DNA of 64,000 nt, taken from a virus. Lineage: Duplodnaviria; Heunggongvirae; Uroviricota; Caudoviricetes. Numbering within the stretch: position 1 is the first letter of the stretch; the number at the start of each line of letters is the position of its first letter. Below the pieces are notes generated by a model. It was not told the origin of the DNA. It was given only the letters and a program-made list of their open reading frames with translations, and ran no database searches. Made by a program: the position numbers and the translations under genes. Where the stretch lies: the IMG/VR virus record IMGVR_UViG_3300012346_000561, positions 78,358 through 142,357 of that record. One strand, given 5' to 3'. Below are positions 5,089 to 10,363 of this stretch, piece after piece.

Positions 5089-6198
5089 CTATACTGTTGG
5101 TGGCACACTACCTGATATAATATATCCCGATCTGTCTAAGTGTACAATGTATCCTGTATCCTTTATACGGATCTTACCTCTCTTAACTGGGGATGGCTTG
5201 TTCCCTTCTAACTCGTACAATCTAACTGTTCGTACTCTTGTTAACTCTTTATTGTCAGTTAAAGTTGCAGGTGTAGTGTTATTCCATCCTCTTATTACAG
5301 TTATTATGTAATCTTCTGCTGCAGAATATCTTACCATTGACTGTACTTTTAATATCTCAGAACTATCTTGCACTAGTAATACATCTCCTGGTTTGTATAA
5401 CTTAAATGGTTTATTATTTCCTGTTATAGGCTCTGTTAGTATTGTAGTTGATAATAGGTCTGTTTGTGTTCCTTTTATTGTAAATAGTGTTGGTACATCT
5501 AACGAATATGTAGGATAGGTTGCTAGATCGGTATGAAAATACTCCAAATAAGATCTTTCTGAAATTTCTGTGTTTGTAATTTCCGAGTCCTTTATTGTAA
5601 TTGGATAATATGTTCCTTCAAAACTTGATCCTATAATTGCAGAGTCTATACTTGCGTAATTATCCCTATTTGTTACTGTTCCTGTATATCTACCATTTGT
5701 CCATCCTGTGTCTGAGTATAAACTGTCTTGTATTTGTGCGTATGTAGTAGACGTCGATATTGTTAGGTAGTCTGATTGTCTGTTTTCTTGTGCATTATTT
5801 AGTAGTACGTTGTACTCACTTGTAAAGAAACTTCCATTTCGTAGGTTTGGTAGTAGGACTACTTGTCCATTCTGCATTACCTCATTTGCATTAGGGTCTA
5901 CATAATCATCAGCATCTAATGGTTGCACAGTAAAGAAGTAGTAACTATTCGGAGAAGTTCCTAATAATACTCTGGTTATTATCGATAATTGTATGGACGC
6001 TGCTGTGTCATTATCTATTGGAATTATAAGTGTCTGTACTTGTTGCAACGTGTTTGCTACACTTATCCCATCACTATCAATTAGCGGAACAGTTACTCCC
6101 AGTACTGTCACTGGTGTGTCCTCTGTACACCATACGTTTAAGTTATATGGGTATATATCTGCTATTGCTAAAAATTCTTGCTGTGTTAAATTTGCCAT
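5089..6198 (-). CDS. tail structural protein (hypothetical)
   Basis: 369 aa ORF inside tail module. Confidence 0.4.
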   Translation of the reverse strand: MANLTQQEFLAIADIYPYNLNVWCTEDTPVTVLGVTVPLIDSDGISVANTLQQVQTLIIPIDNDTAASIQLSIITRVLLGTSPNSYYFFTVQPLDADDYVDPNANEVMQNGQVVLLPNLRNGSFFTSEYNVLLNNAQENRQSDYLTISTSTTYAQIQDSLYSDTGWTNGRYTGTVTNRDNYASIDSAIIGSSFEGTYYPITIKDSEITNTEISERSYLEYFHTDLATYPTYSLDVPTLFTIKGTQTDLLSTTILTEPITGNNKPFKLYKPGDVLLVQDSSEILKVQSMVRYSAAEDYIITVIRGWNNTTPATLTDNKELTRVRTVRLYELEGNKPSPVKRGKIRIKDTGYIVHLDRSGYIISGSVPPTV

Positions 6199-6214: not shown

Positions 6215-9200
6215 TTATGGTGTCCCATATATACATTGCTCTTGGTAGTTTAATTCTTCTTTGTTGTGTACTAATATTCCATTTGCATAATAAGTATAAT
6301 GCTCTTTTAATTTAAAGTTGTAAACTTTTTCATAAGCTCTATTACCGTCTAACTCCATGTCTACAATTTCTACCTGTAATCCTTCTTGTGTCAACAAGAT
6401 ATCTCCTTTTTCAAGTTTAGAAACTTCTATTGCATGATCCTTCTCTGTAGCAGTTGGTGAGTATGAACTCCATCCTTTATTTACCTCCCAGAATGGATGC
6501 TCTGTTGTAGCTTCTACCACTGTTCCATCACTTAGGGTATATTTTACAATATCGTTTTTAGTAGGAGAAGTTATTGCCAGTACTTCACTAATAATCTCTT
6601 CATTTGTTTTTTCATTATAAGAAAGTACTCTATCTCCAACTTTTATTGCATCTATACGTATTGTTGTTGAGTCCGCAAGAGTGACCAAAGTATCTCCTGT
6701 AAAACAACATACACCTATATTTTCAAAGTCATCTATTATTTCAACTAGTGTAGGCTTCACTGTATATGAAGGTTCACAATCTGGTGATGATTCCAAAGCT
6801 GTTATTTTTATGAATAAGTTTTCTGCCACTATTACCGGATCACCTGTTCCTACATACGGTGTGTTAGCTTCAATTTTGAATAACGCTGTGTTTCCTGTTA
6901 AATTTGCACTTATGCCTGGCTGTGGTACATAGCTGTATGTGTACTTGTACAGATCAGGTCCTGCAAAGTATGGGTAGAATGTACCTGTTACTTGTGTGTC
7001 TCCTGGGTTTATTTCAGGGATGATTAATGGTGTAGCATCAAATTCACTTATTTCTATCCTGTAAGATAGGGTGTCTGGATCTACTCCTTCAAAGTATCTT
7101 GCTAGTCCATAGTTGTATATACTTATTGGTGAAAATAGTAGATTGTTTTCTGTTCCTAGATTCGTCTCCAATGTCCATCTTACAAGTTTTAAATTTTCGA
7201 TTGTTCGTGGTACTACATTACATATTCCTAAACTGATAGCGTAATTAAATATACATGAAATAGGGATCGCAGTGTCTTTTATCGTTATTGTAAAAGTGTC
7301 TCCTAGATTTCCAGTAAAAGTAACGGCTGTTGCACCTGAGATATTTCCATCGTAGATTGCAGGTGTAGGACTGCTGTCATTTACTATTGTTATTTGTACA
7401 TTAGCTAAATCATTCTCAGGTCCTATGGTAAACCACTGAGATATGTTGTACGACTCTCCTGCTTTTATGCTTGTTCTAAAGTTTGTTGAGTTTTGATCTA
7501 AATCACAAATTGCTACTTGTATAACGAACGATGATGTACACTCTTGCGATACTACAGAATCATTTGAAGCTGTGAAGTAGTGCATTGAGTAGTTGTCGTA
7601 GTTGTTTGTTTCAAATGGAAATAGGAAACTACTTGTGCCTTCATTACTACTTGTAATCTCATACGACATATTTGGAGATAATCCTGAGAATAAGTTAGAT
7701 GCAGTCCAGCTTCCTGAGTCTAGGTAAAATGCACCTGCTTGGTAAACTACTCCTTGTTGTTGGTTAGTTGTAATTGGTGCTAAAATACAAACTCCTGAAT
7801 TTGTTAACCATCTGTTAACTACAAATGTGTTAGTAGCAAATGTTGGTGATTTAAAAAAGTTTAAACTGTTTAGATCCTTTAGTGAAACTGTTATACTACT
7901 ATTTTGAAGTTCTCCATCAAAAGTTGCTTGTTGGTGACTGTGATTGTCTACTACTGCTAGTCCTGATGGTATCTGTACTTGCTGTTTGTATGATGCATTT
8001 AAGTCTCCTGCTATTGATTGTGGGTTAGTAGTTACAAACGCTCCTGCATTAGATGCTGATATGAATGCTGTATCTATTGATCCTGTATGTAAAAGCTCTT
8101 CTGCTTCAACTTCAACACTCTTTGCTTTATTTCTTTGTAGGATGTGAGGTTTTACTATTATACCTGTGTCTACAGTAGATCTTGCAGGTATAAAATCTTT
8201 TACCATTTTAAATATGATATTATCAAAAAATTTGATTAATCTCACATAATCCTTAACGTTATAGCTATCTGCCCCACTCATTATTGTACTTAACAATTGT
8301 TGTAGGTCTGAAGTTGTTTCTCCTTGAGAGTTTAAACTGTAGTACTCATCTAAGTATAGATTTCTAGGATCTCCTAGGTAGTCGTCAATATTAAAGGTAG
8401 CTAATGCTGGCGTTGATAGTGATTTAGATATAATGTACTTATCTACGTCGTTGGTTGGTGAAAATCCTACCTCAAGCAAATGCAAGTCATCCGTGTACTT
8501 GTATTCTCTTTTTACTATAGATGTATGCTGAGATAGCGTGTCTCCTGCAACAATGCTTCCTGTGTTATCTATACGAACTTTACTTAATGAGCTTGTATAG
8601 TATTGGTAGTCTCCATAAAAAGGAACTTCATCAATTGAACGTCCTCCATATGTCTTTATTGTTAATATATCTGCAGGGATTCCAAAGCAATTTATCAAAG
8701 CTCTTAATCCTCTTTCAGTTCCTTTTGATTTTAATAATAGAGGAAGATTGTGGTACAATCTCTTGTATACCTCCTTGTTGTATGTATCGAAACTTAACTT
8801 ATCTGCAGGTAGGTTTGTATCGGCTACTGATGCTGTTACGTATGTAGAGATTTCCTCACTGCCTGAGTCATATCCTTGTCCTATAAATGATGCAAATAAT
8901 CCTTCAATTGAATTATTTGTTGTGTACAACTTAACTCCAAAGTTCTTTAATGCTTCTGCAACCAAGTCTTTAGAGATCCCTTTTGTTAGTCTATTATCAG
9001 CATCGTACTTATCTGTTACTGCTTTTGCATATATCCATAGGTTATCAAAATGCTGCCCTACCATGTGGATGAATGTCAAATAATTATCATTATTTGCATC
9101 ATCTCTTAGATATGTTGGTATTGTATTTACTAAAATACTTCCATTCGACACATCGTAACTAGTTGCAATTGATACTTGATTTGCGTACCAATTTATCGCT

Positions 9201-10363
9201 TGAGTAGTTGTGCTACCATAGTTTGTGTATGGTTGTGTTGCATTTGATTTCGGCCATGAGTTACTTCCCGATTCGTAGTATAGGAATCTTTCGTAGTGGT
9301 CAAAATTATTTACCACTCCTAGTATTAAGTTTTCGAAATAACTAATACTTCCAGTTGTACCTGTTGATTGTGCTGTTGCTGATTGAATTGCTGTTAGATC
9401 GTCGTTATAACTTTCTATTAGTTGTAATTTGTATCTGAAATTTGCTAATCTCTCATATGCTGATGATAGGTGTACAAAGTTTGCGTAATCTGTATGATCA
9501 ATGCTTAGTTCAACTCCTTTTTCACTTACTAGTGAATGTAGTTGGCTTGTTGCATTGTTGATTGGATAGCTAAATAACTCATCGTAGTTTAAATATTGTG
9601 TTGGAACAATACTATCATCTACTACATCTATGTTAAAGTTTGCTGAGCGTAGATATCTTTTAGGTTCCTCTGTTTCTTGTATTTCTGTATCTACTTCAAA
9701 TGCTACAGAGTCTGCTACTACCTCAACAATTGATGTTGTTGATTTTAAATCGTACTTCTGTGGTAAAGGTTCATACAACTTAACAACAACAGTGCTACCT
9801 CCTGGTGTCTCTAATGTGTTTAGGTTGATACCTATCAGTAAATCGTTGTTCCCAAAATTTAACCTAAATTCACCTAGATATGGTTGGCTCGTTTGGTTTT
9901 GCAGAATACCTGCAGTAAATTCCAGTAGTTGCTCATCAGTGATTGATAAGTTCTGTAACTGTAGTTCGGTCCTATCAGGTGATATTGCTGAGATAAAGAA
10001 ACTAGTTGTTGTACCATCTTGTGTATATAGGTCATTCAGGAAGTGATATAATAATTTTACTCCTCCATTTGTATATCCATAAGTGTTGGTATCTTCTATT
10101 GGATCGATTGTTAGTACCGATGCTCCTGTCTTACCTGCAGATTGTGCGTTTCCTAGTAATTTATAGTTCTTATAATTAGGTACACTCTCTAGTATATCTC
10201 CTGTTAAATCTGTAATGTGAAGTTCACATATATGCTTGTTTGCATCAAATAGGTTATTTATTTGATACTCATTAATTAGATTCAAATCTGATTGTGAAAT
10301 ACTTTCAAAACCAGGTATGTTACTAGGATTATCTTGATTAACTATGTAAGTTATATTTGCCAT
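6215..10363 (-). CDS. large (1382 aa) tail/baseplate structural protein with C-terminal Hint (intein/BIL-like) domain
   Basis: single uninterrupted ORF; last 163 aa carry intein blocks A (CFTGDTLV), B (ATTEHPFW) and G (NGILVHN). Confidence 0.6.
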   Translation of the reverse strand: MANITYIVNQDNPSNIPGFESISQSDLNLINEYQINNLFDANKHICELHITDLTGDILESVPNYKNYKLLGNAQSAGKTGASVLTIDPIEDTNTYGYTNGGVKLLYHFLNDLYTQDGTTTSFFISAISPDRTELQLQNLSITDEQLLEFTAGILQNQTSQPYLGEFRLNFGNNDLLIGINLNTLETPGGSTVVVKLYEPLPQKYDLKSTTSIVEVVADSVAFEVDTEIQETEEPKRYLRSANFNIDVVDDSIVPTQYLNYDELFSYPINNATSQLHSLVSEKGVELSIDHTDYANFVHLSSAYERLANFRYKLQLIESYNDDLTAIQSATAQSTGTTGSISYFENLILGVVNNFDHYERFLYYESGSNSWPKSNATQPYTNYGSTTTQAINWYANQVSIATSYDVSNGSILVNTIPTYLRDDANNDNYLTFIHMVGQHFDNLWIYAKAVTDKYDADNRLTKGISKDLVAEALKNFGVKLYTTNNSIEGLFASFIGQGYDSGSEEISTYVTASVADTNLPADKLSFDTYNKEVYKRLYHNLPLLLKSKGTERGLRALINCFGIPADILTIKTYGGRSIDEVPFYGDYQYYTSSLSKVRIDNTGSIVAGDTLSQHTSIVKREYKYTDDLHLLEVGFSPTNDVDKYIISKSLSTPALATFNIDDYLGDPRNLYLDEYYSLNSQGETTSDLQQLLSTIMSGADSYNVKDYVRLIKFFDNIIFKMVKDFIPARSTVDTGIIVKPHILQRNKAKSVEVEAEELLHTGSIDTAFISASNAGAFVTTNPQSIAGDLNASYKQQVQIPSGLAVVDNHSHQQATFDGELQNSSITVSLKDLNSLNFFKSPTFATNTFVVNRWLTNSGVCILAPITTNQQQGVVYQAGAFYLDSGSWTASNLFSGLSPNMSYEITSSNEGTSSFLFPFETNNYDNYSMHYFTASNDSVVSQECTSSFVIQVAICDLDQNSTNFRTSIKAGESYNISQWFTIGPENDLANVQITIVNDSSPTPAIYDGNISGATAVTFTGNLGDTFTITIKDTAIPISCIFNYAISLGICNVVPRTIENLKLVRWTLETNLGTENNLLFSPISIYNYGLARYFEGVDPDTLSYRIEISEFDATPLIIPEINPGDTQVTGTFYPYFAGPDLYKYTYSYVPQPGISANLTGNTALFKIEANTPYVGTGDPVIVAENLFIKITALESSPDCEPSYTVKPTLVEIIDDFENIGVCCFTGDTLVTLADSTTIRIDAIKVGDRVLSYNEKTNEEIISEVLAITSPTKNDIVKYTLSDGTVVEATTEHPFWEVNKGWSSYSPTATEKDHAIEVSKLEKGDILLTQEGLQVEIVDMELDGNRAYEKVYNFKLKEHYTYYANGILVHNKEELNYQEQCIYGTP
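6263..6706 (-). other. Hint / intein-like autoprocessing domain (C-terminal 148 aa of the 1382-aa protein)
   Basis: Cys codon of CFTGD at 6704-6706, Asn of VHN at 6263-6265, followed by Lys (not Cys/Ser/Thr) and a 15-aa tail. Confidence 0.55.

Follow-up and report, generated by a model that had tools for sequence, protein, structure and literature searches.

A type-A BIL-like Hint domain, probably self-excising, inserted close to the 3' end of a gene in a phage baseplate module

Introduction

To our knowledge, work on bacterial-intein-like (BIL) domains has dealt almost exclusively with bacterial secreted or toxin proteins and with one ciliate locus. Type-A BIL domains were reportedly treated by Amitai et al. 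in 2003 and by Dassa et al. in 2004. Among the available structures, 2lwy is that of Clostridium thermocellum BIL4, a type-A BIL. Type-A BILs start with a nucleophilic Cys or Ser and cut themselves at both ends, with splicing as a minor outcome, in vitro or in E. coli. The definition of the type-A class includes a terminal His-Asn (block G) like that of inteins, and a mechanism that does not depend on a +1 nucleophile has been proposed for it (PMC4031507). The ciliate domain, BIL2 of BUBL1, has been shown to form a link through the epsilon-amine of lysine, that is, an isopeptide (PMC8616854), while the PT-HINT domains of polymorphic toxins lie just upstream of toxin domains (PMC3482391). Our full-text literature searches turned up no account of a Hint or BIL domain within the tail or baseplate proteins of phages; in the phage papers that were found, "Hint" referred to terminase or helicase inteins or was the ordinary English word.

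Here, we describe a Hint domain encoded in a window of 64,000 nucleotides (the whole stretch of phage DNA that was analysed). We consider it probable that this domain is a type-A BIL, mini-intein-like element that excises itself, is mostly selfish, and was inserted near the 3' end of a gene of the phage baseplate module.

Results

The host gene occupies positions 6215..10363 on the minus strand, on which all features given below lie as well, and encodes a 1382-aa protein of the virion module, with its stop codon at 6215..6217. Mapping of residues to coordinates placed the Hint domain at exactly Cys1220 to Asn1367 (6263..6706), a type-A BIL-like unit of 148 aa without an endonuclease domain; the extent given in a preliminary description of this DNA was thus correct, and all of the motifs quoted there were found, together with the second Cys that precedes block A. 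In the block A context, V-C1219-C1220-FTGDTLV, Cys1220 (6704..6706) is predicted to act as nucleophile in the N-to-S acyl shift and Cys1219 (6707..6709) is the -1 residue. Block B reads A-T1286-T-E-H1289-PFW, and the His of its TxxH motif (6497..6508) and the Pro that follows are invariant in our alignment A1. Block G, NGILV-H1366-N1367, ends in the His-Asn pair (6263..6268), whose Asn would be expected to cyclise and sever its bond with Lys. As had been noted earlier, the next residue is a Lys and the protein then ends within 15 residues: Lys1368 (6260..6262), the +1 residue, is non-nucleophilic in the canonical sense and belongs to the tail KEELNYQEQCIYGTP (6218..6262), which reaches the stop codon, represents both C-extein and native C-terminus, and includes Cys1377 (6233..6235).

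The search against Hint and intein profiles that the preliminary description had proposed placed PT-HINT of Pfam (1.4e-10, 42 bits, cut-off 27.7), the Pfam Hint profile (8.9e-8, 32.4 bits, cut-off 29.7) and NCBIfam intein_Nterm above their own cut-offs on this region, well beyond a chance resemblance. The Pfam Vint family matched as well, and Intein_splicing of Pfam stayed under its cut-off (21.7 vs 35.8 bits). A phmmer search of the PDB matched two solved BIL domains with E values of about 3e-9. In the AF2 model, the Hint had a pLDDT of 84-98 and the 15-aa tail a pLDDT of 36, and Foldseek superimposed the domain on BIL structures with TM scores of 0.87-0.92 and an rmsd of 2.0-2.2 Å. Foldseek gave 58 PDB matches at E<=1e-3, and the matches listed were BILs, inteins, and Hedgehog domains. 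The entries 6y75 and 6tmm (TM 0.87-0.92) and 2lwy (TM 0.88) ranked ahead of the mini-inteins and well ahead of Hedgehog 1at0 (E 5e-6, TM 0.72, rank 44).

With Cys1, TxxH, His-Asn, a non-nucleophilic +1 Lys, no endonuclease, and BIL structures as its best matches, the domain is of the BIL kind that had been suggested. The Hedgehog type, which had been offered beside it, does not fit, as the His-Asn is present, a sterol-recognition region is absent, and Hedgehog structures match much less well. Type-B BILs are marked by the absence of a terminal His-Asn, which here is present and conserved. A domain-profile search of the six-frame translation of the window detected no second Hint copy. The GC content of the Hint (0.336 vs 0.345-0.363 for the gene) is not different from that of the gene and gave no compositional sign of foreign origin.

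The same motifs bear on whether the domain could be a canonical class 1 mini-intein that undergoes standard four-step splicing. Such an intein would likewise carry Cys1, TxxH, and His-Asn, it would account for the weak intein-profile matches, and it would agree with the in-frame insertion, the empty-site alleles, and the homing-like horizontal spread set out below. It is nevertheless highly improbable, being already contradicted by the +1 residue, which is Lys here and Glu in P0001-3, rather than Cys, Ser, or Thr. In addition, the Intein_splicing score falls short, BIL structures fit better than inteins do, and the site lies in a hypervariable region of a structural protein and not in a conserved enzyme motif.

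Comparison of orthologues showed that the host protein is conserved over residues 1 to ~800 and hypervariable in its C-terminal part. Baseplate wedge genes of the gp25-like and gp6/J-like kinds are found upstream of the gene and a fibre/spike-like gene downstream of it, and the gene order around it is identical in the Hint-less phage immuto. The earlier designation as a tail/baseplate protein can be kept by gene order only, since searches of Pfam, PHROGs, NCBIfam, and PDB sequences returned no match for residues 1-1053; the product is probably a host-recognition protein. An AF2 model of residues 1-780, built from 26 sequences, was poor (pLDDT 48), and its Foldseek search returned only noise. 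Between residue 1053 and the Hint lies the N-extein's C-terminal domain (residues 1054-1219; 6707..7204), which is supported by BLAST matches (E 1e-20 to 1e-32) and by alignment and was modeled as beta-rich with a pLDDT of about 55-77. Across the whole protein, a Pfam scan at E<=1 returned Hint-related families only. No tRNA genes were found in the window.

Four Hint-less alleles (L029, L030, P0219, and P0246) proved to be colinear across the insertion site with "spliced" Hint-bearing alleles, and the three cysteines of the motif, designated Cys(a), Cys(b), and Cys(c), line up; in the window protein, Cys1219 is Cys(b) and Cys1377 is Cys(c). BLAST HSPs cross the junction, for example between residues 1-183 of P0002 and residues 1134-1317 of the 1318 of L029 (E 2e-28). 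When the tails alone were aligned to Hint-less C-termini, shuffling mostly gave p values of 0.1-0.6, with only the P0002 and L006 tails reaching 0.001-0.017; the case for colinearity is made by the junction-crossing HSPs and the register of the three Cys, not by the tail-only alignments. This empty-site evidence is valid for the family of the window protein only. As judged from these alignments, the Hint is an in-frame insertion directly after the middle Cys (C1219) of a native three-Cys motif, 15 codons before the natural stop, and a loop in the native motif is presumably closed between Cys(b) and Cys(c). The preliminary description had the domain fused to the C-terminus of the protein, which is right in that it sits near the C-terminal end; it is inserted after Cys1219, and the native 15-residue end, with which the tail is colinear, follows without interruption in Hint-less orthologues.

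An insertion inside a pre-existing Cys loop was also considered for the P0009 family but found no support there, given that its Hint-less alleles are truncated (L088) or contain a decayed cassette (L086), with no tail.

Because PT-HINT is the best Pfam family, the domain might be thought to be the pretoxin-HINT of a polymorphic toxin, which would release a C-terminal toxin or bioactive peptide. This is extremely improbable and already contradicted by the lack of a toxin domain behind the Hint: the 15 residues that are all that follows share homology with the native C-terminal end of structural orthologues that have no Hint. Neither a toxin gene nor an immunity gene is present, and the next gene is syntenic with that of the Hint-less immuto.

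Pairwise comparisons of the window protein (WIN) revealed opposite relationships for the Hint and its host gene. Against L006, the Hints are of equal length and align without gaps at 85% aa and 83% nt identity, whereas the adjacent N-extein reaches 37-40% aa and 48-53% nt identity and the tail 57% nt identity, with sharp boundaries. Against L089, the body is 82-90% and the Hint 59-61% identical at the aa level, and P0029, an 81% identical orthologue, has a Hint that is only 59% identical. Hint dN was 0.077 for L006 vs 0.317 for L089, and body dN was 0.305 vs 0.062. With dN/dS ratios of 0.27 (WIN vs L089) and 0.08 (WIN vs L006), the Hint is under purifying selection. The dS values of 0.9-2.1 are near saturation, so dS was rejected as a clock and is of supporting use only; the argument for a more recent ancestry of the Hint rests mainly on the rank reversal in dN and identity and on third-position identity. 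Since the histories of Hint and host gene are incongruent, the sequence comparison indicates horizontal exchange at one fixed site and without an endonuclease; we found no endonuclease domain in the Hint and no extra endonuclease gene adjoining the host gene, which counts against a mobile element.

In the WIN-L089 comparison, the non-synonymous rate of the Hint is about five times that of the protein body, as might be seen in an inactive relic, a non-processing Hint kept as an extra C-terminal domain of a virion protein, and decaying copies do exist elsewhere. We regard a relic as very unlikely, given that no catalytic residue has been lost here or in >90% of 325 domains, that dN/dS stays at 0.08-0.27, and that the AF2 model is well folded with high confidence.

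No Hint was present in any of 120 database orthologues, this Hint type occurred in 1 of 43 unique IMG/VR C-termini, and >99% of the sampled orthologues are without a Hint. A second, divergent Hint type occurs at the extreme C-terminus of other orthologues. In the P0009 family of related proteins, L088 is cleanly without the cassette, whereas L086 retains a decaying copy, in which ~30 codons from the start of the Hint and a tail remnant persist along with a frameshift and a stop codon. In P0029, which is 81% identical to the window protein over its whole length, the stretch of the tail that holds the Cys is gone. Being sporadic, decaying, and discordant with its host gene, the Hint behaves like a mobile and largely selfish element.

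The same distribution argues against the autoproteolytic maturation of a tail component that the preliminary description had envisaged, since >99% of orthologues manage without the Hint, it decays in a related family, and its phylogeny is discordant with that of the host gene. In the strongest form of that idea, the Hint is a domesticated maturation module, a removable C-terminal aid to folding or assembly, or a timer, that the phage needs; cleavage at Cys1219/Cys1220 would then be obligatory, in a role analogous to that of S74, the intramolecular chaperone of tailspikes. The conserved catalytic residues and the purifying selection on the Hint would be expected of such a module, and so would two different Hint lineages at the C-terminal end of one protein family; moreover, 54 of 168 family members end 0-5 residues after His-Asn, where the domain is a pure C-terminal appendage. 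However, Hint-less orthologues with a homologous C-terminal domain are the large majority, the P0009-family cassette decays while the gene stays, the Hint evolves independently of the host gene, and no S74- or chaperone-like signature was found by Pfam in the whole protein. Domestication is, in our view, unlikely.

The Hint family is very large, with 9765 cluster representatives (50% identity) at E<=1e-3. Of the 325 full domains, 99% (321/325) have Cys1 and 91% (297/325) have His-Asn, and the +1 residue is Lys in 66%, Arg in 8%, and Cys, Ser, or Thr in 8%. The spacing of the tail Cys ranges from +9 to +35. Across the family, the -1 Cys and the tail Cys co-occur (20/5/7/23, Fisher p=3.7e-5, not corrected for phylogeny), and the association may partly be a lineage effect, because both Cys belong to the host motif. 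A catalytic role read from this association was dropped, as Hint-less orthologues show both Cys.

Discussion

If the Hint works like the homologous BILs and inteins that have been characterised, Cys1220, aided by T1286 and H1289, would convert the C1219-C1220 peptide bond to a thioester, and Asn1367, aided by H1366, would cyclise and cut the Asn1367-Lys1368 bond. The Hint would thus remove itself and leave a structural protein that ends at Cys1219; less often, or alternatively, the freed amine of Lys1368 could attack the thioester and re-join the 15-residue native tail, by the route without a +1 nucleophile that has been proposed for type-A BILs. It is by analogy with these relatives that we infer the catalytic activity of the Hint and its products, and we likewise infer an element that is in essence selfish or neutral. 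Self-excision, together with a position close to a C-terminus that can in part do without its last residues, would explain why the element is tolerated.

For a domain of this kind, canonical splicing is not expected and self-cleavage would be the default outcome. Type-A BILs can, however, ligate without a +1 nucleophile, and since the native tail is conserved, with a Cys-Ile/Val-Tyr motif, its re-attachment may matter. A purely selfish, cleavage-only element leaves this conservation and the co-occurrence of the -1 and tail Cys unaccounted for, and the second Hint type at the C-termini of orthologues could mean that the position benefits the phage.

The Hint might alternatively be a device for covalent ligation, in which the Cys1219 thioester passes to a particular amine or thiol to give an isopeptide, thioester, or branched link; the candidates are the side chain of Lys1368, Cys1377 at its remote position, another virion protein nearby, or a molecule on the host surface. 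The best structural match, BIL2, forms just such a lysine isopeptide (PMC8616854), Lys is the predominant +1 residue of the family and stands at +2 in E-K and SHN-type variants, and the two co-occurring Cys would correspond to the presumed Cys(b)-Cys(c) loop. Since Arg takes the place of Lys in 8% of the domains and many proteins end at HNK, the Lys may be merely structural; furthermore, the variable spacing of the tail Cys, the lack of a tail Cys in P0029, and the low-confidence AF2 tail speak against a dedicated device, which we consider decidedly unlikely.

A more far-reaching reading is unlikely. It takes the HN-K Hints to be a mobile element without an endonuclease, which would have as its target the terminal Cys loop in receptor-binding-type phage proteins and would re-close the loop by a non-canonical ligation. 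The alpha- or epsilon-amine of Lys1368 (as in BUBL BIL2) and Cys1377 as a displaced "+1" nucleophile are possible routes to this, and a third possible route is a Cys1219-Cys1377 disulfide that keeps the cut tail in place. In the same reading, the Hint DNA, ~83% identical between alleles whose flanks are ~50% identical and situated at the 3' edge of a hypervariable domain, may also serve as a portable block of homology, which, if true, would promote the exchange of receptor-binding domains between phages.

On our preferred reading of a mostly selfish, self-excising insertion, the Hint is a new example of a known element and not a dedicated maturation device. What is novel is a BIL in a phage virion gene, where empty-site alleles, a decaying relative copy, and Hint/host-gene incongruence, not previously available together, can be studied at once. 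The locus therefore offers a natural system for asking how an intein-like element without an endonuclease spreads, and why BILs can do without a +1 nucleophile; they may, as one answer has it, occupy sites that need removal only and not exact re-ligation. It also means that the mature length and the C-terminal chemistry of the host protein cannot be read from the gene, and, because the family is so large, annotations probably give a wrong size for many structural proteins of metagenomic phages.

Among known systems, the peptidase S74 intramolecular chaperone of phage tailspikes and fibres resembles the Hint in its place at the C-terminus of an adhesin-like phage protein, from which self-cleavage would remove it, but its fold and chemistry (a Ser-Lys dyad) are unrelated, and S74 is needed for trimer folding whereas the Hint here is optional. 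Hedgehog (Hog) domains share the location at the protein's C-terminal end and the expected N-terminal thioester chemistry; they have a sterol-recognition region and no terminal His-Asn, while here His-Asn is present and 15 residues follow. PT-HINT (PF07591) is the best-scoring profile and exceeds its gathering threshold, yet this protein has no toxin domain and lies in no secretion or toxin locus. The mini-inteins of phage replication genes (such as gp41-1 and the DnaB/helicase inteins of Vibrio phages) have the same fold, are in-frame insertions, and are mobile between alleles, and such inteins, at about 30% identity, were the only matches to the Hint region in isolated phages. They splice, with a +1 nucleophile and within conserved enzyme motifs, whereas the present domain has a +1 Lys and stands near the end of a variable structural protein.

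The best structural match, BIL2 of Tetrahymena thermophila BUBL1 (6y75, 6tmm; 23-24% identity), likewise has no canonical +1 nucleophile. In its eukaryotic setting it has ubiquitin-like domains on either side, of which it joins the upstream one to the side chains of Lys, whereas here the Hint is flanked by a structural domain of a phage protein and by a 15-aa tail, for which ligation is only a candidate outcome. With 2lwy, the domain shares its fold and the "VYN" motif of block F. In common with type-A BILs in general, it is a Hint of about 140-150 aa without an endonuclease, has Cys1, TxxH, and a terminal His-Asn but no +1 Cys, Ser, or Thr, and resides in a hypervariable part of a non-conserved protein. 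It differs from them in that its host is a phage virion-module protein and not a secreted bacterial protein, in having a defined site with empty-site alleles and horizontal exchange, in its strongly conserved +1 Lys, and in the cysteines that flank the domain, one at -1 and the other 9-35 residues downstream.

Identification and class of the Hint domain

The Hint/intein-like domain put forward in the preliminary description was borne out; residue-to-coordinate mapping places it exactly at Cys1220..Asn1367 (6263..6706, minus strand) of the 1382-aa protein encoded by ORF 6215..10363 (minus strand). All of the quoted motifs are present, namely block A (G-V-C1219-C1220-FTGDTLV), block B (A-T1286-T-E-H1289-PFW), and block G (NGILV-H1366-N1367), and the domain is followed by a tail of 15 residues from Lys1368 to the stop codon (KEELNYQEQCIYGTP). 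The HMM search, which had been proposed as a check, gave matches above threshold for the Pfam profiles PT-HINT (1.4e-10, 42 bits; cut-off 27.7) and Hint (32.4 bits; curated threshold 29.7) and for NCBIfam intein_Nterm; the Pfam profiles Vint and Intein_splicing both remained under their own thresholds on this protein. On residues 1224-1325 (window 6215-6760, minus strand), which make up the first half of this Hint, the Pfam profile AXH (Ataxin-1/HBP1 module) also exceeded its gathering threshold, and the AXH structures 1v06 and 4j2j were matched by sequence in the PDB. This match would reflect either real homology of AXH with the first subdomain of the Hint or a Hint-contaminated profile, and not a second domain.

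Structural comparison of an AF2 model of residues 1054-1382 (pLDDT 84-98 over the whole Hint) with the PDB by Foldseek gave the top ranks to two solved bacterial-intein-like (BIL) domains, namely BIL2 of Tetrahymena BUBL1 (6y75/6tmm; E 7e-13, TM 0.87-0.92, rmsd 2.0-2.2 A) and the Clostridium thermocellum BIL (2lwy; TM 0.88). Mini-inteins came next, with Hedgehog 1at0 down at rank 44, and a PDB sequence search again retrieved both BILs (E ~3e-9). Type-A BILs keep the His-Asn, have no +1 nucleophile, and mainly cleave, but are also capable of ligation through the amine that is freed on the C-flank (PMC4031507; PMC7765530). Compared with the published definitions, the window Hint displays all of their sequence-level features and is, on this basis, a member of the type-A BIL/PT-HINT kind. 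It lacks a defining feature of the type-B BIL, the canonical intein, the pretoxin-HINT, and the Hedgehog domain; from the earlier designation as a BIL/Hedgehog-type Hint, the BIL part is thus retained and the Hedgehog part is dropped.

Insertion into a native terminal Cys motif

Comparison of the C-termini of 80 IMG/VR loci and 120 database orthologues revealed extreme variability. A Cys lies within the last 20 residues in 22/37 unique C-termini from IMG/VR (4.7 expected) and in 55/119 from the database orthologues (15.4 expected). Among these C-termini (L006-L085; P0191-P0310), 47/119 carry at least two Cys in the last 30 residues, and a terminal Pro is unusually frequent (29/119); the paired near-terminal Cys suggest disulfide-closed terminal loops on a distal domain.

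Four Hint-less orthologues (IMG/VR loci L029 and L030; database proteins P0219 and P0246) possess a C-terminal domain homologous to residues 1054-1219 of the window protein (35-47% identity; BLAST E 1e-20 to 1e-32). When the Hint was deleted in silico from the window protein, from its closest relative P0029 (locus L089, 81% identity overall), from L006, and from P0001-5, the 'spliced' sequences were colinear with these four, with HSPs spanning the junction (e.g. 'spliced' P0002 1-183 against L029 1134-1317 of 1318; 'spliced' L006 13-190 against L030 1149-1317). Three Cys are in register between the two sets: Cys(a), C1196, in the conserved 'E-x-P-D-C-T-P' motif; Cys(b), C1219, the -1 residue; and Cys(c), C1377, the tail Cys, in the shared 'E-C-I-[YTS]' motif. 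Together, the colinear alignments and the Cys register indicate that the insertion point of the Hint directly follows Cys(b) in a native motif and that the 15 residues of the tail form a true C-extein. The domain had been described as fused to the C-terminus; by colinearity with the Hint-less proteins, this is corrected to an in-frame insertion whose tail is the native C-terminus.

Selection and separate history of the Hint

The catalytic residues of the window Hint are intact, and its dN/dS values (0.27 for the pair with L089, 0.08 for that with L006) show it to be under purifying selection. Against L006, the Hint is of the same length and ungapped, with 85% aa and 83% nt identity, as compared with 37-40% aa and 48-53% nt in the adjacent N-extein, 57% nt in the tail, and 56-71% aa in the gene body, and the similarity ends within about four codons beyond the His-Asn. 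Third-position identity for this pair is 0.63-0.71 in the Hint, 0.43-0.45 in the adjacent N-extein, and 0.45-0.57 in the body. Against L089, the Hint shows 59-61% aa identity and the body 82-90%. The ranks are thus reversed, with dN of 0.077 (L006) and 0.317 (L089) in the Hint versus 0.305 and 0.062 in the body, and the relationships of the Hint contradict those of its host gene. Since dS is near saturation, the timing argument from dS is only supportive, whereas the reversal of ranks is robust. The simplest reading is that a 444-nt element has been exchanged horizontally between alleles at one fixed site.

Within the Hint, identity between the window protein and P0029 (L089) is 68-71% in the N-terminal half and 40-56% in the C-terminal half, where third-position identity is 0.38-0.52, suggesting a recombination breakpoint inside the element.

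Distribution, decay, and a possible second colonization

The Hint was present in 0/120 best database orthologues, and the window type in 1/43 unique complete IMG/VR C-termini (L006). A second, divergent Hint-like domain ends 5/43 unique IMG/VR C-termini (ten loci). Orthologues with such an end (L054, L055, L067, L068-L074, L078) have 1476-1925 aa. The domain is shorter, with Cys1, C-V/L..., a block B His (...H-R-x-Y...), and ...TYISNGILSHN followed by 2-5 residues (TK, GK, VKGIE), and has sub-threshold Pfam matches only. It looks like an independent colonization of the same protein's C-terminus.

The P0009 family, unrelated phage proteins of ~470 aa, ends in the same Hint, with the terminal His-Asn followed by Lys (HN-K). 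Its locus L088 (3780-3910) is a clean Hint-less allele ending '...DYTAVCPI', and L086 (3780-4060) holds a decaying cassette whose junction is broken by a stop codon and a frameshift and in which the first ~30 Hint codons remain (STCCFVKGTKITMFDYTTKNIEDIKIGDLVI), followed by an internal deletion and a recognizable out-of-frame tail remnant (TTAWLNWSTQYAQIACIATIP). P0029 has kept its Hint and lost the Cys-containing segment of its tail (KLYIP). These alleles indicate that the cassette and the tail are each dispensable in some lineages.

At large, a phmmer search of 1.84 billion cluster representatives with the C-terminal 181 aa retrieved 9765 proteins at E<=1e-3, of which 1608 reached E<=1e-10. 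Across 325 full-length domains from 171 analysed proteins, Cys1 is found in 99%, the terminal His-Asn in 91%, +1 Lys in 66%, +1 Arg in 8%, +1 Cys/Ser/Thr in 8%, and -1 Cys in 24%. About one third of the family proteins (54/168) end 0-5 residues after the His-Asn. Tandem arrays of HN-K Hints are common, with 2-8 copies and spacers of 1-6 residues (e.g. ...VHNK-CF..., ...VHNRS-CF...), in proteins reaching ~4200 aa (P0025, P0026, P0028, P0061, P0008, P0012, and others). PHROG phrog_21587, with no function assigned, has a Hint at the end of its 706-position profile, so C-terminal Hints do occur, unannotated, in phage proteins. Among INPHARED isolated phages, no structural gene had a homologous Hint at E<=1e-5, and the Hint-region matches were helicase or polymerase inteins only.

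Small phage proteins of the P0023 type (L004/L005:8001-9002; also P0017 and P0020) bear the same Hint between an N-terminal transmembrane helix with a Cys-containing segment and a ~45-50-aa tail. Three small ORFs, spanning ~800 nt, separate their genes from a weak GH19 (endolysin-like) match upstream, and these proteins may represent a lysis-module use of the Hint.

Host gene and neighbourhood

The window phage is a relative of the 160-kb myovirus Flavobacterium phage vB_FspM_immuto, whose immuto26A_162 (1265 aa, 'hypothetical protein') is orthologous to the host protein, with 50% identity over residues 1-1054 followed by complete divergence and no Hint. Both phages share the order gp25-like gene, gp6/Baseplate_J-like wedge gene, 371-aa gene, 111-aa gene, and host gene, followed by four genes and a fibre/spike-like gene. 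Outside the Hint, Pfam, PHROG, and PDB searches gave no match, and a poor AF2 model of residues 1-780 gave no structural match; we therefore infer a baseplate/tail protein from gene position and the hypervariable C-terminus, a feature typical of host-recognition proteins.

The adjoining downstream gene (5089-6198, minus strand; 369 aa), without a Pfam or PHROG match, is syntenic with immuto26A_163 ('putative nucleic acid binding protein'); Hint-less phages carry it too, so it was ruled out as a Hint-associated nuclease. No endonuclease domain was found in the Hint, nor any extra gene adjoining the host gene. The large ORFs examined in window 1-22000 are on the minus strand; over 1-64000, no tRNA genes were found, cumulative GC skew declines almost monotonically, and AT skew keeps strongly negative values over the full length.

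Proposed mechanism and products

By analogy with characterized relatives, Cys1220 with T1286/H1289 would form a thioester at the C1219-C1220 bond, and cyclization of Asn1367 with H1366 would cut before Lys1368, whereupon the Hint would leave. Cleavage alone would yield a protein ending '...C1196-x22-C1219', which resembles the many Hint-less orthologues ending 'C-x20-25-C-x1-2'; ligation would restore 'C-x22-C-x9-C-x5', resembling another class of orthologue C-termini. We would rank cleavage-dominant self-removal first, with ligation as a possibility. The flanks may instead be re-attached by a peptide, isopeptide, thioester, or disulfide bond, a possibility consistent with the conserved tail motif and +1 Lys, with the family-wide co-occurrence of the -1 Cys and tail Cys (Fisher p=3.7e-5, phylogeny not corrected for), and with BIL2, the best structural match, which forms a Lys isopeptide (PMC8616854); however, the tail Cys has been lost in P0029, and P0009-family alleles are truncated.

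Comparison with known systems

A dedicated maturation of the tail component, as initially proposed, is probably not the role of the Hint, which is absent from most orthologues, can decay, and has its own history. We found no description of a BIL/Hint of such setting and history in the searchable literature. The novelty lies in the setting and in the evolutionary evidence: a phage virion-module protein carries the BIL, its point of insertion within a terminal Cys motif is defined and has empty-site alleles, a copy in the P0009 family is decaying, and the exchange is homing-like without an endonuclease. The window Hint is a tractable natural system, which is like intein homing in its apparent exchange at a fixed site and differs from it in doing so without an endonuclease domain.
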